Shown here in pieces: positions 29,919 through 45,547 of a DNA stretch of 64,000 nt (its first letter is position 1; each line of letters opens with the position of its first letter). This DNA is from an uncultured Clostridium sp. (GTDB lineage Bacteria > Bacillota > Clostridia > TANB77 > CAG-508): contig CAKNRV010000001.1 in NCBI GenBank assembly GCA_930991035.1, forward strand, positions 124,719 through 188,718. The letters run 5' to 3'. Below the pieces are notes generated by a model. It did not search any database, was not told the DNA's origin, and worked only from the letters and a program-made list of their open reading frames with translations. Made by a program: the position numbers and the translations under genes.

Positions 29919-31469
29919 TTATTCCTCCATAACTTCGTCTATTTGCTCTTTTGCATCTGCTACTGACGAACTATCAGGAATCATTATATACGAATTTAGA
30001 TTTCCTAATGAATATGTTGGTCCAGAAGAACCTGTTCCAGTTAAAGCATTAGTCTTTATTGTCCAAGAAGACATATTACTTAATTGGTCTTTTACTATAT
30101 TACTTATTTCGTCTTGGCTTATATTGGTTTGGAAACAGCCTTCAAGTGAACTTAGTATATCTGTATATCTAGTTAAAAGTGTAGTACTATTTAATACTTT
30201 CTTTATAATAGCCTCAATTACAGCTTGTTGGTTTTTAACTCTTTGATTATCTCCTGATGCAAATGAATGTCTCTCACGGCTAAATGCTAAAGCTTTTTCA
30301 CCGTCCATATAGTTGTAACCTTGACTAAAGCTATATCCTTGAGATGTAAATGAGTAATCAGAATATACTTCTATTCCCCCCAATGTATCGACCAAATTAA
30401 TTACTGTTGTAAAGTTAACTCTTACATAATAATTAATATCAACATCTAATAAATCTTCAACAGTTGTAATGGTTTCATTTATTCCATATATTCCAGAATG
30501 AGTTAACTTGTCTTTAGCACCTTTACTGTGTAGTGTTACATAATAATCTCTTGGAATAGATGTAAGTAATACTTCGTGTGTTTTAGTATTAACAGTAGCT
30601 AATATGTTGGCATCACTTCTTGAAACATTACTAATACTTCCAGATGTATCAATACCACTTATATATACATTAAATATACCATTTCCTATTGTATATTCAG
30701 AACCTTCTGTACTAACCTCTGCTGTTTTTTCTACTTCGTGGTTAGCTGTATGCAAAATCTTTGTATTATCTTTAAAATTAGAAATTTCTTCACCTAGCAT
30801 ACTGTATTGTGAAGAGCTAATATATATTACATTAATTTCTCCATTTAGTAAGCTTGTACCAATTGCAGTCAAGTTTTCACCTGTCTGAAATGTTACATCA
30901 ACTTGATTCTCTAGTTCTGCTGTTACATCTTCGCCTATTTGGAAGGTATATACTTCTTCGCCTTCTATATCTGCTAAATCTTCATAAGTATTATTATTTC
31001 TTACTACAACATAATACTCTTCAGTTTCTGTAACTTGGGTAAACATTGAACCTAAAAAGTCATTTGTAGCATTAGCAAAATTTGTGACATAAATGTATAC
31101 ACAAGATACTAGTATTGCAATAATCAAACAAAAAATATTTAATTTATATGTTTTATGTCTCTTTCCTAAACCAATTGCAACAAGCAAAGTAAAGATAATT
31201 TCTGCAATTGTAAATGCAACAATATATCCACTTGGTAATAGGTTTAGTCTAAGGATTGAGCTGTAAAATACAATTGTAATAATTATATATGCAAGTGTTA
31301 ATATTCTAAACACTACAACTCCCTTTCCAGATTTGTTTTTTGCTGGTTTACTGCTTTTATTTGATTTGGTATAGTTTTTATTACTACTATACCCCATATT
31401 AGAAGAGCCTTTAGTACTCTTTCTATATGGATTTTCATCATTTCTCATTCTTCTTGGTTGATAACTCAT
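29919..31469 (-). CDS. LCP family ligase with an extended N-terminal region (basic tail, TM segments, extra domain)
   Basis: ISGIDTSG...RSDANILATVN...LTSIPRDYYV...KLTHSGIYG...ALAFSRERH is the LCP core. The N-terminus is basic, followed by about 3 TM helices. Confidence 0.85.
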   Translation of the reverse strand: MSYQPRRMRNDENPYRKSTKGSSNMGYSSNKNYTKSNKSSKPAKNKSGKGVVVFRILTLAYIIITIVFYSSILRLNLLPSGYIVAFTIAEIIFTLLVAIGLGKRHKTYKLNIFCLIIAILVSCVYIYVTNFANATNDFLGSMFTQVTETEEYYVVVRNNNTYEDLADIEGEEVYTFQIGEDVTAELENQVDVTFQTGENLTAIGTSLLNGEINVIYISSSQYSMLGEEISNFKDNTKILHTANHEVEKTAEVSTEGSEYTIGNGIFNVYISGIDTSGSISNVSRSDANILATVNTKTHEVLLTSIPRDYYVTLHSKGAKDKLTHSGIYGINETITTVEDLLDVDINYYVRVNFTTVINLVDTLGGIEVYSDYSFTSQGYSFSQGYNYMDGEKALAFSRERHSFASGDNQRVKNQQAVIEAIIKKVLNSTTLLTRYTDILSSLEGCFQTNISQDEISNIVKDQLSNMSSWTIKTNALTGTGSSGPTYSLGNLNSYIMIPDSSSVADAKEQIDEVMEE

Positions 31470-31661: not shown

Positions 31662-32582
31662 CTATTTTCTCAAATTTTCTTTTATTGTTTCATAAATGCT
31701 TTGAGCATCTAATGAATTCATTTTTTTTATTTCACTATATGTTCCATAGCCTTCTGCAAATTTATCGTTTATGCCTATTTTTACTAACTTTGCATTAATT
31801 CCATAAGTTGCTATTACATCTGCTATGCTACTTCCTATTCCTCCTATAACAGAGTGTTCTTCCAATGAAAAAATTTTGTTTTGTATGGTACATTCTTGTT
31901 TTATATTCTCTACATCTAGTGGTTTTATTGTATGAATATTTATAATTCTTAAGTCTATTCCATCTTTTAATAACATTTCTTGTGTCTCTAATAATTCTGA
32001 AATAATACTACCAGTAAAAAATATGGTGGCAGATTTTCCATCTTTTATAACAATATTTTTGCCTGTTTCAAATATATAATCATTTTCATATATTTCTTTT
32101 TCATTACTCATTCCCATTCTAATATAAGTTGGTCCTTTTATTTCATAAGACTTTTTTACAACCTTTTCTAACTCTAATGGACTCGCCGGTGAAAATATAG
32201 TAAGATTTGGAAGTACCTTAAGTGCCGCAATATCTTCGGTTGTATGGTGTGTAGATCCTAGTGTAGACCAAGATAAGCCACACCCCATCCCAACCAATTT
32301 TACATTTCTATTTTGCAAGCAAATATCATCTCTAATGAACTCATAAGATCGATATGCCAAAAAAGCGTTTGTAGTATAAACAAAAGGTATTTTACCACAA
32401 GCTGCTAAACCTGATGCAGCAGCCACTTTATTATTTTCACTAATGCCAAAATTTATACATTGGTCTGGAAATTCTCTTGCAATTAATTCATCATAATCTG
32501 TTCCACTATCAGATAAGCAAGATATTACGTTTTTGTCTTGTTTAATTAACTCATATAAAGCATTTATATATGCTCTTTGCAT
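31662..32582 (-). CDS. Transketolase, C-terminal (pyrimidine-binding) subunit
   Basis: 306 aa, paired with the N-terminal subunit. This is the typical split-transketolase architecture, with a 19-nt overlap with its partner. Confidence 0.8.
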   Translation of the reverse strand: MQRAYINALYELIKQDKNVISCLSDSGTDYDELIAREFPDQCINFGISENNKVAAASGLAACGKIPFVYTTNAFLAYRSYEFIRDDICLQNRNVKLVGMGCGLSWSTLGSTHHTTEDIAALKVLPNLTIFSPASPLELEKVVKKSYEIKGPTYIRMGMSNEKEIYENDYIFETGKNIVIKDGKSATIFFTGSIISELLETQEMLLKDGIDLRIINIHTIKPLDVENIKQECTIQNKIFSLEEHSVIGGIGSSIADVIATYGINAKLVKIGINDKFAEGYGTYSEIKKMNSLDAQSIYETIKENLRK

Positions 32583-33397
32583 AACTTAATTTCCTCCTCA
32601 CTTATATTTAGTTCTTGCATAAATACTTTTAATTCTTTTTTGTTTGGTAATTTCCAGTGCCATCTAGGGTTATTCTCAACTATTGATACTCCCTTTCCTT
32701 TTACTGTATTTGCTATAATTAATAATGGTTTTTCAGAATTATTTGGTTCAGCTAATACTTCTTCCAATTGTTCAACATTATGTCCATCTACTTCTCTTAT
32801 TTCCCAGTTTAAACTTGCAAATACATTTTTCCATGAATTAATTCCCATAACTTTTTCTAATGTATCCATCTTTTGCAACTTATTATTGTCTATAATTGCA
32901 ACTAAATTATTCAAATTATAATGTGAAGCAAACATAGCAGCTTCCCATACTGTTCCTTCTTCACACTCACCATCACCTAATAAGACATAAACTTTATTAT
33001 CTTTTTTGTCTAATTTTTTGGCTAATGCCATACCAGTCCCAATTGATAGTCCATGACCTAATGAACCTGTTGATGCTTCTACTCCAGGTATATTTGGTAT
33101 ACAAGGTTCCCCTCCCAAATATGACCCTGGTTTAGAAAATCCCTTTAGTATTTGTTCATCAAAGAATCCCGCTTCACACAAAGTTACATAAAGTGCTAAG
33201 CTTCCGTGTCCTTTGCTCAATATGAACAAATCCCTATCTTCTTGCTTTGGATTTTTAGGATTATATCTTAGAATATGCTTTAAATATAATACATACAAGA
33301 TTTCTACTATTGAAAATGCAGAAGCTAAATGAGCAATGCTTGCACTATATCCAGTTAGAAATATCTTTTTTCTTAAATTTAATAATTCATTATCCAT
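32564..33397 (-). CDS. Transketolase, N-terminal (TPP-binding) subunit
   Basis: SKGHGSLALY, GSLGHGLSIGTGMA and LLGDGECEEG are TPP-binding motifs. Confidence 0.85.
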   Translation of the reverse strand: MDNELLNLRKKIFLTGYSASIAHLASAFSIVEILYVLYLKHILRYNPKNPKQEDRDLFILSKGHGSLALYVTLCEAGFFDEQILKGFSKPGSYLGGEPCIPNIPGVEASTGSLGHGLSIGTGMALAKKLDKKDNKVYVLLGDGECEEGTVWEAAMFASHYNLNNLVAIIDNNKLQKMDTLEKVMGINSWKNVFASLNWEIREVDGHNVEQLEEVLAEPNNSEKPLLIIANTVKGKGVSIVENNPRWHWKLPNKKELKVFMQELNISEEEIKLCKEHI

Positions 33398-33537: not shown

Positions 33538-34380
33538 TTAATTAAAAATTGTAATTGTTTCTGAGTCCAATCCAGAACCAGCCATATATGGCAAATTACT
33601 TAAATAATCCATATCCTCTTTGCTAATTTCAAAATCAAAAACATTTAAGTTAGATTTCATTCTTTCTTTTTCACTTGTTTTTGGTATTGGTAGTACTCCA
33701 TTTTGTAGACACCACCTTATACAAATTTGAGCCACATCTTTATTATATTTTTTAGCAATTTCCTTCAATTGCTCTTTTTTTAACAATCTGCCTGAACCTA
33801 AAGGACTCCAAGCTTCAACTAAAATATTTTCTTTTTTGCAAAATTCAATAATCTCTTGTTGCATAAATCCAGGATGGCATTCTATTTGATTAATCATTGG
33901 TTTTATTTTGGCACTTTTCAATAATGCTTCTAATTGATTGACTTTAAAATTACAAACTCCTATCGCCTTTACAATCCCTGAATTATATAAATATTCCATA
34001 GCCTTCCAAGTTTCAGCATTTATTTCTTTCCAATCTTCGTGTACTGCTTGAGATGCAGGCCAATGCACAAGATATATATCAAGATAATCACAATCTATCG
34101 TTTCTATTGTTTTATGGCAAGCCTTAATAATATTGTCATAACCTCTATCATCATTCCATAGCTTCCCGCCAATTATAATATCGTCTCTTTTTATATTAGA
34201 ATCTTTTATTCCTTTGCCAACAGCTAATTCATTTCCATATGATTTAGCTGTATCAATATATCTATATCCACTTTCTATTGCATTAGTTATAATTTGACTT
34301 GTTTCTTCTTTATTTGGAAACTTCCAAGTTCCAAATGCAATACTTGGTATTTCTAAGCCATTATTTAATTTATAGTTCAT
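33538..34380 (-). CDS. Aldo/keto reductase
   Basis: FGTWK...YRYIDTAKSYGNE...LDIYLVHWP...AWSPLG are AKR signatures. Confidence 0.85.
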   Translation of the reverse strand: MNYKLNNGLEIPSIAFGTWKFPNKEETSQIITNAIESGYRYIDTAKSYGNELAVGKGIKDSNIKRDDIIIGGKLWNDDRGYDNIIKACHKTIETIDCDYLDIYLVHWPASQAVHEDWKEINAETWKAMEYLYNSGIVKAIGVCNFKVNQLEALLKSAKIKPMINQIECHPGFMQQEIIEFCKKENILVEAWSPLGSGRLLKKEQLKEIAKKYNKDVAQICIRWCLQNGVLPIPKTSEKERMKSNLNVFDFEISKEDMDYLSNLPYMAGSGLDSETITIFN

Positions 34381-34492: not shown

Positions 34493-35557
34493 TTAAGTGC
34501 TTTCTCCAATTAATTTATTTATCTCAACTTTAGTATTATCTACTTGCTTATGCCAGTTATCTAATAAATCAAACCAGTCCTTATAATTTTCATCTTCTCT
34601 TCTATCTGGTAAGTTATAATTTTCTTTTAAGTATTCACATAGGAAATCAGTATATTTCTCTGAGCCAAAAATATTCACATGGTTTTCATCATATAAATCC
34701 TTAGCAAAATCAATCTTCATTTCTTCATAATAATCATTAGCATCCAAGAAATTGTAACTATATTGATTAATTATTTCACTTATGTAATTAAAATTTTCTT
34801 TATGTTCTTCTTGTTCAACATAAGGTGAAACAACAAATAAATAATTACATTCTGTTGTTTTACAATACTCTAATAAATCTATTAATATTTCTTCTGTTTC
34901 TTTCGCAACAGGCTTCTTGCTGTCCGTCTCATTTTTCGCTTTTGTCTGCTTATCTACTTTTGGTACAAAGTAAAAACCTTTTAATGGATTTTTATATATA
35001 TTAAAAGCCATTTTTATTTGATTATTAATGCTTGCTCCTTTTAAATCTCTATGATATTTTATAATATCAAAACAATATGATGCTTTACCTTCTTTTAAAT
35101 ATTTTTCAACATTTTCATAAATAAATTCTAATTTATTTAAAGAAAATGGCATACCTGTAAGTACATTTCTATATGCTACTTCAGTTGGTGGTTGATCTTT
35201 TTCTCGATATTGAAAAGATCTTGCATCAATTATTATCAATTCTGGTTTTTGATTTTTTAATATCTCCTTTATCATTGTTTTATATAACTCTGGTTGAATG
35301 GTATTGGCACCATAATTATATGAGGCAATCCCTTCTTGTTCAAATGCTCGTAATGGCTCATAATATACAAATGCTGCACTACCTCCAATATAAACCATAT
35401 CCAACGTATTCTTTTCTTCACCATAAAATCCAGCTATATTATTTAAATCTACGGACGTTGGTTTCATTATATATGTCATTACTCTAATAAAAAGTAAAGA
35501 TATTAGCATAAATATAATTATTAAAATACTCCATTTTATTATTTTCTTTGCTTTCAA
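34493..35557 (-). CDS. Membrane-anchored extracytoplasmic DltD-like/SGNH-like acyltransfer partner protein
   Basis: Start placed at TTG 35557 (GGAGG upstream), 2 nt after the stop of the MBOAT gene. It has an N-terminal TM segment. Its position immediately downstream of an MBOAT mirrors dltB-dltD and algI-algJ. Confidence 0.5.
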   Translation of the reverse strand: MKAKKIIKWSILIIIFMLISLLFIRVMTYIMKPTSVDLNNIAGFYGEEKNTLDMVYIGGSAAFVYYEPLRAFEQEGIASYNYGANTIQPELYKTMIKEILKNQKPELIIIDARSFQYREKDQPPTEVAYRNVLTGMPFSLNKLEFIYENVEKYLKEGKASYCFDIIKYHRDLKGASINNQIKMAFNIYKNPLKGFYFVPKVDKQTKAKNETDSKKPVAKETEEILIDLLEYCKTTECNYLFVVSPYVEQEEHKENFNYISEIINQYSYNFLDANDYYEEMKIDFAKDLYDENHVNIFGSEKYTDFLCEYLKENYNLPDRREDENYKDWFDLLDNWHKQVDNTKVEINKLIGEST

Positions 35558-35558
35558 T

Positions 35559-37070
35559 TTAAAAACCTCCATATATAAATTCTGCCGGATTATAACCAGG
35601 TCCATAAATGCCATAAGTTAAAATTAAATATAGCATAAAGAATATAACAATATATCTAAAAATAATTCCTTGTTTATTAAATAATTCTAAAACATCTTTG
35701 TCCTTGTATTGCAAATAATCCACTACAAAAACAATTATTCCTGCTATCAATATAATCATGTATGGTATTTGAGGTAACGCAAGTCTTAAATCAAAATTAC
35801 TAATTTTAAATACATTAGAAACAACAGAAAAGCCTAACCAAAAGTTTGGTGCTAATACAAATAACCAAATTAAACACATTAGAGCAACTGTTCTTATTGA
35901 TTCAAATAGTCTATAACTAAATCTTTCTGTATTGATATGTAATATATCCTTTAATTTTTTGAATAACGGCTCACATAACTGGCTAATTGTAAGATATAGC
36001 CATGGTAAAATACCCGCTGCAAATATGTATTTATATGATGCTCCATGCCAAATTCCAATTATTAGCCATAATATAAATATTGCAATGATCATAGGTATTT
36101 TTTTACCTATTTTTTTGCCAAATTTTTTCTTACATTTCTCTGCCAAGTTTTGGAATGGTTTTGAAATTAATAATGGATACATTATATAATCTTTTGCCCA
36201 AGTTCCTAAAGTTATATGCCATCTTCTCCAAAATTCCGAAAGATTTCTTGAAAAAAATGGACTTTTAAAGTTTTCTGGCAAGGTTACGCCATACATTTTA
36301 CTTGCTCCTATAACAATATCCATACATCCTGAAAAATCAGTATAAATTTGAATAGCATAGAATATTACTCCTATTACTAAATATATTCCAGAATATATAT
36401 TATATTGGCTAAATATGGCATTTACAACAATTCCTAATTGGTCTGCTATTACCATTTTCTTTAGAAGTCCATATACTATCCTCTCCGCACCAAAAAGAAC
36501 ATTTTTGAAGTTGTATTCTTTTGGTGTAAATAGCTCTTCTTTCATTTCATTATATCTTACAATTGGTCCAGAAATCATAACTGGATAATAGCAAGTAAAT
36601 AGAGTATGCTTTAAAATATTCTTTTGAGGTTCAGAAGTCCCTCTATACACATCTAATGTATATCCTATTAAAGATAGAGCATAATAAGAAATACCAAGTG
36701 GTGCCAATAAATTAAAAGTTGCAAAGTGAAAATTTACATTAAACACACTAGCTATACCATTTAATGTAGTAGGTATAATATTAATATATTTTAAAATTAC
36801 TAATTGTCCAACTATACATAATAATGTTATAAAAAGTGCTATTTTTTTAGATTTGTCTGTTTTTAAATTTTCAGCTATTAACCTTGCTCCAATATAAGTT
36901 GCAACTATGCCAAATAATAATACAATTAATAGTTGCCATGAACAGGCAGACATAAAAAATATTAAACTAGCTATTAATAAAACTATCCATCTATGCTTCT
37001 TAGGAAAAATATAATATACTATGACACTTGCTACTAAGAATACAAAAAACTTTAATGTTGTTATTCCCAT
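35559..37070 (-). CDS. MBOAT-family membrane O-acyltransferase (DltB/AlgI-like)
   Basis: 503 aa polytopic protein. The FWRRWHITL and IWHGASY histidine motifs are characteristic of MBOAT. Confidence 0.8.
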   Translation of the reverse strand: MGITTLKFFVFLVASVIVYYIFPKKHRWIVLLIASLIFFMSACSWQLLIVLLFGIVATYIGARLIAENLKTDKSKKIALFITLLCIVGQLVILKYINIIPTTLNGIASVFNVNFHFATFNLLAPLGISYYALSLIGYTLDVYRGTSEPQKNILKHTLFTCYYPVMISGPIVRYNEMKEELFTPKEYNFKNVLFGAERIVYGLLKKMVIADQLGIVVNAIFSQYNIYSGIYLVIGVIFYAIQIYTDFSGCMDIVIGASKMYGVTLPENFKSPFFSRNLSEFWRRWHITLGTWAKDYIMYPLLISKPFQNLAEKCKKKFGKKIGKKIPMIIAIFILWLIIGIWHGASYKYIFAAGILPWLYLTISQLCEPLFKKLKDILHINTERFSYRLFESIRTVALMCLIWLFVLAPNFWLGFSVVSNVFKISNFDLRLALPQIPYMIILIAGIIVFVVDYLQYKDKDVLELFNKQGIIFRYIVIFFMLYLILTYGIYGPGYNPAEFIYGGF

Positions 37071-37132
37071 AATTGCTAAATTCCTTTCAATTCTTCTAAA
37101 ATCATTTTTATTATTTTCTTATAAATATTATT

Positions 37133-37552
37133 TTAACAAATAACTCCTATTTGCATTTTTCCTCTACATACTTTAGCTCCATTTTTATCAGATATAGTAA
37201 CTTTTATTGTAATTCTTGAAAATCTATCATCTTTTTCAATTACTTCTCCTTTTACTTTTAACGGAGATGAAGATAAAAATACTGGCTTTGCATAGCTTAT
37301 TTCAACACTATGAATAAGACTATATTTTCCTGGTAAATATACACCTGCTAAAGTAGACAATGCAGAAGTAGTAAGTAATCCATAAACTACTACTTCATCA
37401 TACCCTTTGGATTTGGCATAATTTGCATCAGTGTGCAAAGGATTTTTATCTCCACTAATGGAATAAAATTGTTTCATTTTTTCTTGTGTTATTTCAAAAG
37501 TAAACTCCTCTACTTGTCCTTTATAAATATCTTCATACTTGTATTCATTCAT
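37133..37552 (-). CDS. MaoC-like hot-dog fold (de)hydratase
   Basis: 139 aa. GDKNPLHTD matches the MaoC dehydratase motif. Confidence 0.7.
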   Translation of the reverse strand: MNEYKYEDIYKGQVEEFTFEITQEKMKQFYSISGDKNPLHTDANYAKSKGYDEVVVYGLLTTSALSTLAGVYLPGKYSLIHSVEISYAKPVFLSSSPLKVKGEVIEKDDRFSRITIKVTISDKNGAKVCRGKMQIGVIC

Positions 37553-37553
37553 T

Positions 37554-37796
37554 TTATTTTACTCTTTCCATAATAATATCAACCATTTCTCCAACATTTT
37601 TTAATGAAGTAATTTCACCCATCTTAAACTTTATATTGAATTTATGCTCAATCGCAACAATTAAATTAATATGCTCCAAGCTATCCCAATCTTCAATATC
37701 ATTTGCTGTGGTGTTATCATTTACATGAATACTCTCATCATCAAATACATCTTGAAATACCTCATCTAAATTTTTATAAATTTCTTCTCTACTCAT
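37554..37796 (-). CDS. Acyl/peptidyl carrier protein
   Basis: 80 aa. DWDSLEHINLI contains the DSL phosphopantetheine attachment serine. Confidence 0.75.
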   Translation of the reverse strand: MSREEIYKNLDEVFQDVFDDESIHVNDNTTANDIEDWDSLEHINLIVAIEHKFNIKFKMGEITSLKNVGEMVDIIMERVK

Positions 37797-37799
37797 TTT

Positions 37800-39584
37800 T
37801 TATTCCTCCACTTTTATAAATTTATTTTTATTTTTATATTCTTTTCTCAAGTCTAGCTCCCATATTGTATTTCCTTGCTCGTCCTCGCTAATTTTAGTAA
37901 AACCTTGCTCAGCATAAAAATCTTTTACCATTCCGTTTTTCACAGTAGGATAGTAAAAACCTTTTATCGTTTCAATTCCAGTTTCTTTTGCTTTTTTTAC
38001 TAAAACATCCATCATTGCAAATTCCATATCTCGCTTTAATACACGACAGCTCATAATCCAGAGATCAATTTCTAATATTTTTCCTAGAATATGGCCTATT
38101 ACAACTGAAACCACACCATTATCTCCAAATATATCAGATAATTTACCATACAATGTAATATAATTTTTATCTTCTGCAACTTCTTCTATTTCTGATTGAC
38201 TATACCTTCTTGTTGTCAAATTAAATTGATTACTTTTATTTGTTAATTGTGCTATTCGCGCCATATATAATGGTATAAATTCTTCAATTTTAGCGTGCAT
38301 ATCAAGTGATTTTAAGTAGTCTCCATAATTATCAAAAGACGCCATAACTTTATTTCTTTCTATATTTTCTTTATACATCTCACTCTTTTTTAAATCATCC
38401 TTTGATAAATTTATTACTTCAAAGAATCCTGACCTGTCAATTGTCTCAATATATCTTTCTGGTTTTTCAATGATTGGTGTAAAAACATTTGGAATCTGTT
38501 GATTTATAATAGCTCTTTCTGCTGGATTATCATCTACAAATACTAAACTATCTACTCCGAGGTTTAGTTCTTGTGCAATCTCTAGCATATTTTTTGATTT
38601 TGGCTCCCAATTTGCTTTTATTATAATAAAGTCTTCTGGCTTTAAAGATCCATCTGGATGGTTAAGACCCGCAATTGCATTTTTTTCGTCATTCTTGCTA
38701 TTTATGTTTAGAATTACACCTATGTTTTTTAATTGCTTCAAATATTCTTGAAATTCACTATATGCTTCTCCTTCACTTGTTTCTTCACCAATAACGATAT
38801 TTTCTACACCATCGTCTCCAACAACTCCACCCCATAATGTATTATCTAAATCAAGTACTAATCCTTTTTTGTTCTTACCATAAATTGCTTTTATTATATT
38901 TGCAACATTAAATGCAAGGTATGGAATTGCCGGAACTGCTAATGCATATTTATACATATACCAATAAAATTGATCAGACCATTTTTCCAATCCATACATA
39001 GCAGATTGATAATTAATATCATTTATATAGAAATTTGCATTCGTTTCCGCAAACTCTGCAAATTTAAGATTAAGTTTTGTAATAAAATTTACTTTTCCGT
39101 AGTTTGCTGTTGCATCTTTATTTCCCAATATTCTATAAAATGGATATTCAAAATTATTTTGAATAATTGGACAATTGTATTTTTGAAATAACGATAACCA
39201 CATATTTTTATATTTTTCAAATTCTTTATTTAGCAATTTTTCTGTTTCTTCATTACTTTCGCCAACTGCAGGATAATTTGTAATATTTCTATTGCTTGTA
39301 TGAATAAAAATAATATCTGGTTTAAATTCTTCTAGTTCTTTATTTTCAAACATTGCATCCTGCCAAAACTGATTATACTCTGATTCATAAAACTTTGGTT
39401 TTATTCCATTATTTAGTAAAAATAATTCTAAAACGAGTTTTATATCATTAGTAGTTGAGCCACCTAAAATTGCTATATTTTTTTCTATAAACCCGCAAGA
39501 GCTTTCTAGTAATTTTTTCTTCAATGATTTTTTCTTTTTTAAAATATACTCTGGGTCAAATGGATATTCTAGTTCTTGTAACAT
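37800..39584 (-). CDS. FkbH-like HAD-IIIC family protein
   Basis: LVLDLDNTLWGGVVGDDG is the HAD-IIIC/FkbH signature. The C-terminal GNAT-like domain is typical of FkbH proteins. Confidence 0.75.
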   Translation of the reverse strand: MLQELEYPFDPEYILKKKKSLKKKLLESSCGFIEKNIAILGGSTTNDIKLVLELFLLNNGIKPKFYESEYNQFWQDAMFENKELEEFKPDIIFIHTSNRNITNYPAVGESNEETEKLLNKEFEKYKNMWLSLFQKYNCPIIQNNFEYPFYRILGNKDATANYGKVNFITKLNLKFAEFAETNANFYINDINYQSAMYGLEKWSDQFYWYMYKYALAVPAIPYLAFNVANIIKAIYGKNKKGLVLDLDNTLWGGVVGDDGVENIVIGEETSEGEAYSEFQEYLKQLKNIGVILNINSKNDEKNAIAGLNHPDGSLKPEDFIIIKANWEPKSKNMLEIAQELNLGVDSLVFVDDNPAERAIINQQIPNVFTPIIEKPERYIETIDRSGFFEVINLSKDDLKKSEMYKENIERNKVMASFDNYGDYLKSLDMHAKIEEFIPLYMARIAQLTNKSNQFNLTTRRYSQSEIEEVAEDKNYITLYGKLSDIFGDNGVVSVVIGHILGKILEIDLWIMSCRVLKRDMEFAMMDVLVKKAKETGIETIKGFYYPTVKNGMVKDFYAEQGFTKISEDEQGNTIWELDLRKEYKNKNKFIKVEE

Positions 39585-41125
39585 TTTCTCCTCCTTGCAT
39601 TTATTTTTCTAAAAATTTGTTTTATTATATCAAAAAAATATATAAAATTATCTGATTTTCTATAAATAATAAATAAAATTATGTTTGGAACCAAAATACA
39701 GATTAGTAAGTTTACAATGATTTGCAGCATTATATTTTCTAAATTTATAGCTTGAACTATTAATGTAGTAATGATTAATAGCAACAACATTATAACCAAA
39801 TATTTTAAATTATTCAATATATATATACTTTTCTTTTGTTTTAACAATTTACTGTAAATATACTTAGGATAACTATAACAGTGTAAAACCAGTGAGCTAA
39901 GAATAGTTCCAATAAATACACCCGGTAAGCCTATAAGTTTTACCAGTATAATTGAAGCAACTATATTTACAACAGCTTCTGCTATTGGTACATATCTATT
40001 TTCATAACAAATTCCAGCTGCATCAGCAAACAATTGCATATTTCTTCTCATTCCTTGAAAATAGAAATTCATTGATAGCACAAAAACTGTTAAAGTATCA
40101 AATAAATAATCTTTTCCTAACCACACACTGATAAAAGGATTTATTATTTCAAAAATACATATTGTAGCAAATGTATATATCCAGAAGTTAGCAAACATAC
40201 ATTTTCGAGAAAATTCATATGCTAGCTCAGTATTTTTTTCTACTAATAAGTTTCCTAAACTTGCTGTTATACTAGTAAAAAATTGTGCCAGTAAGTTATT
40301 TACTGTATTTATTATAAGATAATAGTTAGAATATAAACCAACTGTTGCTATTCCTATAAATTTTGAGATTATTATATTGTCTGTTCCTAATACTAAAAAC
40401 CCACCTACATTATGAAAAATTGATGCTTTTAATCTTCTACTAATATCTATTTTAGTCTCTGCATCCAATTTTTCATTGATTTTTCCTTTTAGGTATTCAT
40501 ATTTTTTATTTACAATGCAAGTTATAATAATATTTTCTATAATCCTACAAACTATTTTTATCATTAAATATAAATAATAGTTATGTGTCGTTATTAAGAT
40601 TATAATTTGTAATATATTCATTACTAATACATATCCAATATGTACTAAATTTATAATATAATTTTTTTGATTTGCATAAAGCATTGACCTCTTATACGTT
40701 AGCAAATATGAGCATACTGTATCAACTAAAAATAGCGCAAATATAATATAAATATTGGATTCTACCAATGCTACATCATTAGCACTTACGATTGTTGTTA
40801 AAAAAGGCATTATTGCCAATCCTAGTAGCAAAATTATTAATGCAATTATCCTATAACTTTTTTTATAAAAATTCATTAAAATAGATATTTTTTTCCTATT
40901 ATCTTCTGCAATTGGTTTATATAGATTATATATAATTGCGGTTCCGAGACCTAAGTCGGCAATCGAAAGCATAGAAATTATATTACTAAATAAGCCATTT
41001 ATTCCTAAGTATATTTGTCCTAATATTTCAACAAATATTTTTTGTGAAATAAAACCGACTAAGATATTTATTACATTTAGTAATATTGCAACAATTATAT
41101 TGCGTATTGCATTTTGTTTTCTCAT
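39569..41125 (-). CDS. Wzx-type polysaccharide flippase (MOP superfamily)
   Basis: 518 aa with about 14 TM segments, located in a glycan locus alongside a Wzy-like gene. Confidence 0.7.
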   Translation of the reverse strand: MRKQNAIRNIIVAILLNVINILVGFISQKIFVEILGQIYLGINGLFSNIISMLSIADLGLGTAIIYNLYKPIAEDNRKKISILMNFYKKSYRIIALIILLLGLAIMPFLTTIVSANDVALVESNIYIIFALFLVDTVCSYLLTYKRSMLYANQKNYIINLVHIGYVLVMNILQIIILITTHNYYLYLMIKIVCRIIENIIITCIVNKKYEYLKGKINEKLDAETKIDISRRLKASIFHNVGGFLVLGTDNIIISKFIGIATVGLYSNYYLIINTVNNLLAQFFTSITASLGNLLVEKNTELAYEFSRKCMFANFWIYTFATICIFEIINPFISVWLGKDYLFDTLTVFVLSMNFYFQGMRRNMQLFADAAGICYENRYVPIAEAVVNIVASIILVKLIGLPGVFIGTILSSLVLHCYSYPKYIYSKLLKQKKSIYILNNLKYLVIMLLLLIITTLIVQAINLENIMLQIIVNLLICILVPNIILFIIYRKSDNFIYFFDIIKQIFRKINARRRKCYKN

Positions 41126-44416: not shown

Positions 44417-45547
44417 TTATTTTAACACAATATTCATATCTGCAAATATTGGAATTTGTATCCTTATTCCACCAATTATAAGTACTGTTAATATAGTTAT
44501 TAAAACTATGTACTCTTTATTTTTTTTATCCTTATAACTTGTAAGTAGATTCGCTATTATTGGTAATTCTAAAAATAATATAAAGTCAAGATATCTTATC
44601 CAAATATCATAATAAATAAATGCTATTAAACAAATTATAGTTAGGATTTGTAAAAATTTATAATATTTTTGCATATCTTCTGTATATACATTATCATATA
44701 TCTTATTTTTCCATACTAAGAATAGAATACCTGCAAATAAAAACAACTGTAAACTTCTAAATATAGATTGCAATGATATAATTGGTTTTATGTTAATATA
44801 GCTGATGATTTTTTCTTTTATAAAAGCTAAAAATTCTATTTTGTCACTAAATAATATTAAAAGTAGTATCGATATTACAATTATTGTTATTATTGTAAAA
44901 ATTAATCTTATTGTTTTCATTTTTAATATTTTATTAATATTAAGCAAGATCCTAACAAAGATAATAGCTATAACTCCATTATGTATTCCTAATGCAATTA
45001 CATATAATAATTTTATATACCATTTTTTATTACTTTTTATAAACTCTTCATATAAGGCTAATGTACATAATATCATCGCAAACGTTGATCTTATGCCACT
45101 AACTAAAAATATATATTTAAATAATGAAATAAATAGTAATATTAAAAATATTGTCATCTTGTTACTATATTTATTAATTTGACAATAATCTATTATAATA
45201 TAAAACATTATAAAGTAACTTATTAAAGTTGGAAAAAAAGGTAATAATGAATAGTTATCTATTAAAGAAATTATATAAAAATAAACCATTGTAATAGGTT
45301 CTCCTCTTTCAAAAAACAAATAGTTTATTAATATATCACCTTTAAATACTTGCATATTATTCATCCAAGTATAATATCTACTTAAATCATATTCTTCACT
45401 AGGCACCCAATAATATGCTAAAACTGCTAATGCAAATGAAAAATCAAAAGCCAAAATTAAACACATTATTTTTTTATAATTCTTTTTATAGCAAATAATC
45501 GCTGGCGCTATACTCAAAAGCAAAACGGCAATCAAAACATATATCAT
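44417..45547 (-). CDS. Wzy/EpsG-like polysaccharide polymerase
   Basis: 376 aa, about 11 TM segments, no soluble domains. It sits among GT genes together with a Wzx. Confidence 0.55.
   Translation of the reverse strand: MIYVLIAVLLLSIAPAIICYKKNYKKIMCLILAFDFSFALAVLAYYWVPSEEYDLSRYYTWMNNMQVFKGDILINYLFFERGEPITMVYFYIISLIDNYSLLPFFPTLISYFIMFYIIIDYCQINKYSNKMTIFLILLFISLFKYIFLVSGIRSTFAMILCTLALYEEFIKSNKKWYIKLLYVIALGIHNGVIAIIFVRILLNINKILKMKTIRLIFTIITIIVISILLLILFSDKIEFLAFIKEKIISYINIKPIISLQSIFRSLQLFLFAGILFLVWKNKIYDNVYTEDMQKYYKFLQILTIICLIAFIYYDIWIRYLDFILFLELPIIANLLTSYKDKKNKEYIVLITILTVLIIGGIRIQIPIFADMNIVLK

Follow-up and report, generated by a model that had tools for sequence, protein, structure and literature searches.

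The window analysed here is a stretch of 64,000 nucleotides from an uncultured Clostridium sp. (contig CAKNRV010000001.1). Its host genome belongs to the Bacillota (1.6 Mb, 29% GC, 89.75% complete) and has uncultured gut Clostridia as nearest relatives. The subject of this study is a gene cassette within a Wzx/Wzy locus, which is predicted to build an acyl group on a carrier protein and to export it. Five of its open reading frames (ORFs) are co-directional on the minus strand, lie at positions 34493-39584 and are separated by 1-62 nt only. An earlier note on this DNA had described these five tightly packed genes, and the ORFs together with their family matches bear this out. The boundary it drew was too narrow, as three genes downstream also belong to the cassette. 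They encode an aldo-keto reductase (AKR) and the N and C subunits of a split transketolase-like enzyme (TK-N and TK-C) that uses thiamine diphosphate (ThDP). The unit is made up of eight genes, including one for an acyl carrier protein (ACP) and one for a membrane-bound O-acyltransferase (MBOAT):

37800-39584, minus strand: FkbH, long form (FkbH_N, HAD-IIIC and a C-terminal Cys domain), 594 aa, putative glyceryl-ACP synthase (TIGR01686, PF21211)
37554-37796, minus strand: dedicated ACP, 80 aa, phosphopantetheine site S39 (PF00550)
37133-37552, minus strand: MaoC/PhaJ-type hot-dog (de)hydratase, 139 aa, putatively converting glyceryl- to pyruvoyl-ACP (PF01575)
35559-37070, minus strand: MBOAT acyltransferase, 503 aa, with fused C-terminal FIYGGF (Y500) (PF03062)
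34493-35557, minus strand: putative SGNH-fold O-acyltransferase (DltD/PatB/AlgJ-like), membrane-anchored, about 354 aa (AlphaFold2 model and Foldseek; the ORF finder extends it to 35614)
33538-34380, minus strand: AKR, 280 aa, putatively reducing the ketone left by the transketolase-like enzyme (PF00248)
32564-33397, minus strand: TK-N, 277 aa (PF00456)
31662-32582, minus strand: TK-C, 306 aa (PF02779/PF02780)

Since the same genes are found together in dozens of genomes, the cassette is not a chance arrangement. Upstream of it lie a Wzx-like flippase gene, which the FkbH gene overlaps, six glycosyltransferase genes, an EpsG/Wzy-like polymerase gene and PglF/E/C/D-like genes. Downstream, the locus ends with two LCP ligases, which suggests that the polymer is wall-anchored. 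The context features are:

39569-41125, minus strand: Wzx-like flippase with multiple transmembrane segments (PF01943, weak, E 1e-5)
44417-45547, minus strand: EpsG/Wzy-like polymerase (PF14897)
28926-31469, minus strand: two LCP ligases (PF03816 twice)

Hidden CGG frameshifts are ruled out, with an in-frame CGG in 0 of the 8 cassette genes. A promoter and terminator scan of the locus gave a signal no higher than in shuffled sequence, and the sole RNA run contained 5% of the words, too few to bear on co-transcription. Just beyond the LCP genes, positions 26842-28805 of the window hold a pair of AAA_21 ATPase and RloB-like genes, likely a defence module.

Loading and export proteins

FkbH reaches 277 bits against TIGR01686 (cut-off 146.65) and is matched by PF21211 as well. 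It has the HAD DxD motif and the C-terminal Cys, an ACP gene adjoins it, and residues D245, D247, T249, S296, K329, D351, D352 and C513 are kept in at least 95% of 81 homologues. Characterised members of the long form were not found in the PDB; the sole relative there is 3slr, the uncharacterised Bacteroides protein BF1531, a long-form FkbH of which the first two domains have been solved. In polyketide systems, FkbH enzymes form glyceryl-ACP (PMC7489565). Judged by this family biochemistry, it is likely that the cassette enzyme loads glycerate from 1,3-bisphosphoglycerate onto the ACP. The cassette shares with the polyketide FkbH systems (FK520, tetronates, lactyl starters) the HAD motifs and Cys, a standalone ACP, a hot-dog dehydratase and a reductase. 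It differs from them in the long form with FkbH_N, in the added ThDP enzyme, and in passing its product to an MBOAT instead of a polyketide synthase (PKS).

The carrier itself is distinct from the housekeeping ACP (contig C26). Its motif W37-D38-S39-L40 is invariant in the homologue alignment, and AcpS is encoded in the genome and adjoins several homologous cassettes; the invariant D38-S39-L40 and the presence of AcpS are what a Dlt-type carrier donor calls for.

Circumstantially, and by analogy, a flagellar glycan locus of Campylobacter jejuni suggests that FkbH supplies glyceroyl groups to glycans. This locus carries the fkbH gene cj1302 and the epimerase gene cj1301, and the glycan bears dimethylglyceric acid; strains 12664 and 12661, each without cj1301 or cj1302, lack this acid, although they differ in other genes too (PMC7099621). 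The dimethylglyceroyl-pseudaminic acid locus (cj1295, cj1301, cj1302) thus resembles the cassette in its FkbH-domain gene and in a glycerate-derived acyl group on a glycan (PMC7099621, PMC3068675). Unlike the cassette, it modifies a nucleotide sugar in the cytoplasm, without MBOAT-SGNH export and without a known MaoC or TK.

On the export side, the DltB histidines have aligned counterparts in H342 and H285 of the MBOAT, and the protein ends in FIYGGF, a form of the C-terminal FxYxxF found in 64 of 66 full-length MBOATs of related loci. The Tyr of this motif is the acyl carrier between MBOAT and SGNH protein; the motif resides on DltX in the Dlt system, and in PatA the MBOAT itself contains it (PMC12148441). 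The catalytic H342 and the fused hexapeptide are the marks of a PatAB/AlgIJ-type MBOAT, and the adjoining membrane-anchored protein carries a Ser-His-Asp triad (S79, H312, D309).

This last protein has one N-terminal transmembrane segment. Searches of Pfam, including the DltD family PF04914, and NCBIfam gave no match to it, nor did its profile match PDB sequences significantly. An AlphaFold2 model reached a pLDDT of 94 from a 30-sequence alignment and 51 from the single sequence. Foldseek placed SGNH hydrolases in all top positions, among them DltD (6pfx) and PatB (7tjb), with weak E-values of about 1e-3. Conserved residues are G77, S79 and H312, the last preceded by D309. From this model we infer an SGNH-fold O-acyltransferase. 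Among the cassette products, the SGNH proteins vary most (13-62% identity). The gene probably starts at TTG 35557 (354 aa); in the MBOAT gene, the two Gly codons of FIYGGF read GGAGG (window 35557-35575), a likely Shine-Dalgarno sequence of the SGNH gene.

Two further observations concern MBOAT-SGNH pairs. In the host genome, a second such pair and a third related MBOAT are found (contigs C3:16076-18354 and C24:13062-14576); these could draw on acetyl-CoA or on the cassette's ACP. Some cassettes (L001, L019, L084) have two SGNH genes per MBOAT, suggesting two acceptor positions.

Taken together, the residues point with high probability to an export layout of the PatAB/AlgIJ kind that is fed by a Dlt-like carrier donor. 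PatA/PatB and AlgI/AlgJ likewise combine an MBOAT of about 500 aa and C-terminal FxYxxF with a membrane-anchored SGNH partner. However, they use acyl-CoA, and no MBOAT/SGNH pathway except Dlt has a carrier protein (PMC12148441), whereas the cassette has its own ACP and loader. With Dlt (DltA-DltC-DltB-DltX-DltD) it has in common the carrier-thioester donor, the catalytic His of the MBOAT, the Tyr hexapeptide shuttle and the extracytoplasmic SGNH transferase (PMC12148441). It departs from Dlt in the absence of DltX, the hexapeptide being the MBOAT's own C-terminus, in three more tailoring activities before export, and in an acceptor that is probably a Wzy polysaccharide. The earlier note was right that FkbH takes the place of the adenylating enzyme DltA: no AMP-binding gene occurs in the cassette or its flanks, and the catalytic residues of FkbH are present. 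Its comparison with DltC-DltB-DltD holds for the presence of carrier, MBOAT and SGNH protein but not for DltB and DltD proper. The MBOAT falls short of the DltB family cut-off (TIGR04091, 141 versus 375 bits), the carrier of the DltC one (NF003464, 18 versus 68), a DltD Pfam match and DltX are missing, and the shuttle motif is fused. The idea of a true dlt operon, which would also require DltA, was rejected on these grounds.

Tailoring enzymes and their linkage across genomes

MaoC finds its best PDB match in an (R)-specific enoyl-CoA hydratase (E 3e-15), and the Asp/His motif of hydratase 2 (D35 and H40) is present in all 27 copies compared. The AKR tetrad is intact (D43, Y48, K73, H106).

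The transketolase-like enzyme, with 6yak as best PDB match of TK-N, keeps the ThDP motif and catalytic residues: G141-D-G-E...N172, H23, H64 and H247 in TK-N, and E49 in TK-C. The residues by which transketolases bind sugar phosphates and hydroxyls are changed. Numbered via an alignment with human TK, the changes are R318 to Q2, H416 to G100, D424 to L108, R474 to M158 and H110 to E97 (human R318/H416/D424/R474/H110 correspond to Escherichia coli R358/H461/D469/R520/H100). They are common to all cassette copies, while the housekeeping split TK (contig C19) has the canonical residues. TK-N reads GGEP in 17 of 17 cassette copies and GHP in housekeeping copies; TK-C has L108 and G100 in 119 of 120 homologues. 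An ordinary pentose-phosphate enzyme that supplies substrate was rejected for the loss of these binding residues and the presence of a canonical paralogue.

H100 is a donor determinant, replaced by Phe in the pyruvate-using DXPS, and R358, D469 and R520 are acceptor determinants (PMC7661550). The H100-equivalent position holds His in 127 of 150 library representatives and Glu in 7, including the four best matches. Glu at this position could bind a donor hydroxyl, and the C2 donor may be pyruvate or a ketose/hydroxypyruvate. A complex prediction of the enzyme (two N and two truncated C subunits) with the ACP scored 0.20, below the mark of 0.32, and does not count as evidence.

A sister TK subfamily (L149, L150) occurs in nucleotide-sugar clusters without FkbH. 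It shares L108, G100 and the loss of R520 and keeps H100 and R358; E97 and Q2 are confined to FkbH-linked copies. The sister enzymes stand beside two radical SAM genes, an HldE-like gene, a SIS isomerase and a methyltransferase (L149:8835-16598, L150:1072-14199). In one metagenome-assembled genome, an apparent frameshift splits TK-N (L002:13858-14722).

The earlier note had proposed a survey of how often FkbH, ACP and MBOAT occur together. We collected 80 loci from other genomes as the best FkbH matches (61-78% identical) and searched them with hidden Markov models in six frames. An ACP was found in 73 and an MBOAT in 58 of the 80, followed by MaoC (30), a VOC gene of the glyoxalase fold (19), a short-chain dehydrogenase/reductase (SDR; 15), TK (13) and AKR (12). 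MaoC accompanies SDR in 15 of 15 cases and TK in 13 of 13; neither SDR nor TK occurs in the 50 loci without MaoC. The 30 MaoC loci divide into 15 with SDR, 13 with TK and two cut by contig ends, and the MaoC of TK loci and SDR loci form one subfamily. None of the 19 VOC loci has MaoC. AKR is present in 11 of the 13 TK loci and in a single (truncated) locus outside them. On the FkbH tree, at least four changes are needed for the TK type, six for SDR and six for VOC, and in three loci (L043, L060, L066) the gene order is reshuffled with the linkage retained.

The linkage is also seen from the TK side. Five of five homologues lie in intact FkbH-ACP-MaoC-MBOAT-SGNH-AKR-TKn-TKc cassettes with unrelated surroundings (capsule-like, teichoic-acid-like or housekeeping), some without nucleotide-sugar genes and two with AcpS alongside. 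SGNH-AKR precedes TK in four of four close metagenome matches. Among 201 genomes of the family, FkbH occurs in nine and cassette-type TK in only two, both times beside FkbH. Context could be read for two of the four best Glu-bearing TK matches (L153 and L154), both with FkbH; three TK representatives lie on contigs too short for context. L154 carries FkbH-TKn-TKc-MaoC-ACP-SDR within a non-ribosomal peptide synthetase (NRPS)/PKS cluster, with no MBOAT or glycan genes, and is the strongest hint of a carrier-bound TK substrate. The cluster itself (L154:1-13228, CAYCGE010000008.1) may direct the synthesis of a natural product in which a branched C5 group is the starter or an ester.

Of 401 Bacillota genomes drawn without bias, 15 had an FkbH above the cut-off. 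The long form was mostly in flagellar or surface-glycan loci, which again showed either the VOC or the MaoC+SDR pattern. Clusters for flagellar or cytoplasmic sugar acylation (L121, L126, L123, L124) have long FkbH and ACP but no MBOAT, and some of them contain FabH-like and VOC genes; glyceryl-ACP appears to supply several transferase types. A Lachnospiraceae clade (L025, L032, L042, L049, L053, L058, L069, L075, L078) has FkbH-ACP followed by a housekeeping block with phosphofructokinase-like and dnaX-like genes; no MBOAT lies within 8 kb, so the acceptor system must be elsewhere. On pSymB of Sinorhizobium meliloti (L143:2684-8689), a VOC-like gene, an MBOAT ending in FLYQGF, an ACP and a long FkbH are found near capsule ABC export genes. 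There the SGNH position is held by a gene annotated as 'TonB-dependent receptor', and about 40 Sinorhizobium plasmid records match. This VOC type predicts a glyceryl group, whereas a lactyl group is predicted for Acetivibrio ethanolgignens (ACET-33324), which has MaoC+SDR together with an MBOAT; both species are cultured.

Proposed pathway and its alternatives

In our best reading, to which we give a probability of about 0.48, a mobile eight-gene unit builds a branched C5 hydroxy-acyl group and exports it onto a surface polymer. FkbH would load D-glycerate from 1,3-bisphosphoglycerate onto the dedicated ACP. MaoC would then strip the 3-hydroxyl of glyceryl-ACP, giving an enol and hence pyruvoyl-ACP, as judged from lactyl starters. 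In the DH-KR-FkbH-ACP (dehydratase-ketoreductase-FkbH-ACP) modules of FR901464 and bryostatin, glyceryl-ACP is converted via pyruvoyl-ACP to lactyl-ACP, a route that the MaoC+SDR variant fits. On this analogy, MaoC probably forms pyruvoyl-ACP here as well. The remodelled split TK would add a ThDP-bound C2 unit to the pyruvoyl ketone, leaving a tertiary alcohol; that it acts on an ACP-bound ketone is slightly favoured. Reduction of the new ketone by the AKR would yield 2,3-dihydroxy-2-methylbutanoyl (+116.047) or 2-C-methyl-tetronoyl (+132.042, isobaric with pentose). Finally, the MBOAT would shift the acyl group from the ACP to its own Y500, and the SGNH protein would transfer it via S79 to an envelope polymer, most likely the Wzx/Wzy polysaccharide. 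The last step is proposed because this mechanism has been shown for PatAB and Dlt and the motif and residues are present here.

Several points weigh against this proposal. We found no literature report of a bacterial polysaccharide that carries an ester of this kind, and the enzyme activities, the polymer ester and the transcription as an operon are all predicted from sequence. The acceptor is uncertain since the cassette often lies outside glycan loci. With a PglF-like gene, the locus can make a UDP-4-keto sugar, and as the sister TKs share most changes without FkbH, the remodelling alone is no proof of an ACP-bound substrate. The 80 loci are related and not independent, so that Fisher p-values overstate the linkage. 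L001 and L060 have TK and MaoC without AKR. The main counter-example to a dependence on MaoC is L153, which shows FkbH-ACP-MBOAT-SGNH-AKR-TK and no MaoC on its 9.4-kb contig.

The earlier note expected a C3 hydroxy-acyl group, possibly dehydrated, to be transferred. Read in this way, glyceryl or pyruvoyl would be exported and AKR and TK would be unrelated neighbours. Loci with core genes only do exist, glyceroyl groups on glycans are known (PMC3068675), and the AKR gene is flanked by gaps of 112 and 140 nt. In relatives these gaps are overlaps, however, the linkage of TK/AKR to FkbH-MaoC is near-perfect in both search directions, and the TK is devoid of pentose-phosphate residues. A dehydrated C3 end product is unlikely also because MaoC never occurs in complete loci without a downstream partner, which is either SDR or TK, the latter in some cases lacking AKR. 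For this variant, the evidence indicates that the TK elaborates the unit further, and we regard plain C3 export as very improbable.

An exported lactyl group would be a different C3 outcome: the AKR would replace the SDR of sister cassettes in reducing pyruvoyl-ACP, and the TK would separately add a C2 branch to an NDP-4-keto sugar of the repeat unit. Such ThDP branching is carried out by YerE/YerF in the synthesis of yersiniose A, where a C2 unit is added to a ketone and reduction follows. YerE/YerF and the sugar-cluster TKs resemble the cassette in this sequence of steps and, in the case of the sister TKs, in the residue changes described above. They act on NDP-keto sugars, whereas the proposed acceptor in the cassette is an ACP thioester and its TK copies carry E97 and Q2. 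The lactyl route would agree with the finding that, in the 80 loci, one and the same MaoC subfamily is paired with either SDR or TK/AKR but never with both, and also with the sister TKs in nucleotide-sugar clusters and the PglF-like dehydratase. We nevertheless consider it unlikely, as the TK moves with the cassette into contexts free of sugar genes and into an NRPS/PKS cluster, is bound to MaoC more tightly than the AKR is (L001, L060), and bears E97/Q2 exclusively in FkbH-linked copies, where the sugar-cluster sisters retain His and Arg.

Another branched or extended acid might arise without a pyruvoyl-ACP acceptor, for instance if glyceryl-ACP were oxidised to hydroxypyruvoyl-ACP and this were extended by the TK; MaoC would then act at a later stage or be dispensable. 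The reactions of AKRs and MaoC hydratases are reversible, and L153 has AKR and TK without an adjoining MaoC. Transposase remnants flank that cassette, however, and the contig ends 310 nt past TK-C. MaoC is present in every other complete TK-bearing FkbH locus examined, and the same subfamily serves SDR loci without TK, which makes this route improbable. Independent of these alternatives, the same acyl chemistry could be directed to a teichoic-acid-like polymer, a lipid-linked glycan or peptidoglycan. Cassettes beside glycerophosphate transferases and ABC exporters (L140, L142) or among housekeeping genes (L138, L139) speak for it. Here, the cassette sits between Wzx and two LCP genes with FkbH overlapping wzx, and the variability of the SGNH proteins is as expected if they are tuned to the local polymer, so we take another acceptor to be rather unlikely.

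The C5 reading can be placed in a wider frame, which we offer tentatively: a modular toolkit of FkbH-primed acyl-ACPs, in which the core alone or with an epimerase gives glyceryl, MaoC+SDR gives lactyl, and MaoC+TK+AKR gives the branched C5 group. As part of this frame, and equally tentative, a TK-family enzyme would form a C-C bond on pyruvoyl held as a carrier thioester, and the NRPS/PKS cluster would have borrowed this module.

Relation to previous work and significance

Searches of the open-access literature gave no description of the cassette, although subscription papers might mention it; the earlier note's remark that its chemistry is experimentally undefined agrees with this. For FkbH together with MBOAT, two papers on cyanobacterial peptides were found, in which they act on different parts of the molecule, and nothing was found on FkbH with MaoC, on FkbH with lactyl, or on a gellan glyceryl transferase. 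New here are tailoring sets that exclude one another, the residue signature of the TK and the example from an NRPS/PKS cluster.

D-alanylation is the sole characterised carrier-fed MBOAT-SGNH pathway (PMC12148441). If the proposal is true, the cassette represents a second kind, with polyketide-like tailoring ahead of export, and branching of a keto-acyl group on an ACP by a ThDP enzyme would be without precedent in enzymology. Non-acetyl esters on the polysaccharides of gut bacteria would then be predictable from gene content. Such esters alter antigenicity and the recognition by phages and enzymes, and they are lost in routine alkaline work-up; the product may be a +132 Da ester, which would readily be taken for a pentose.

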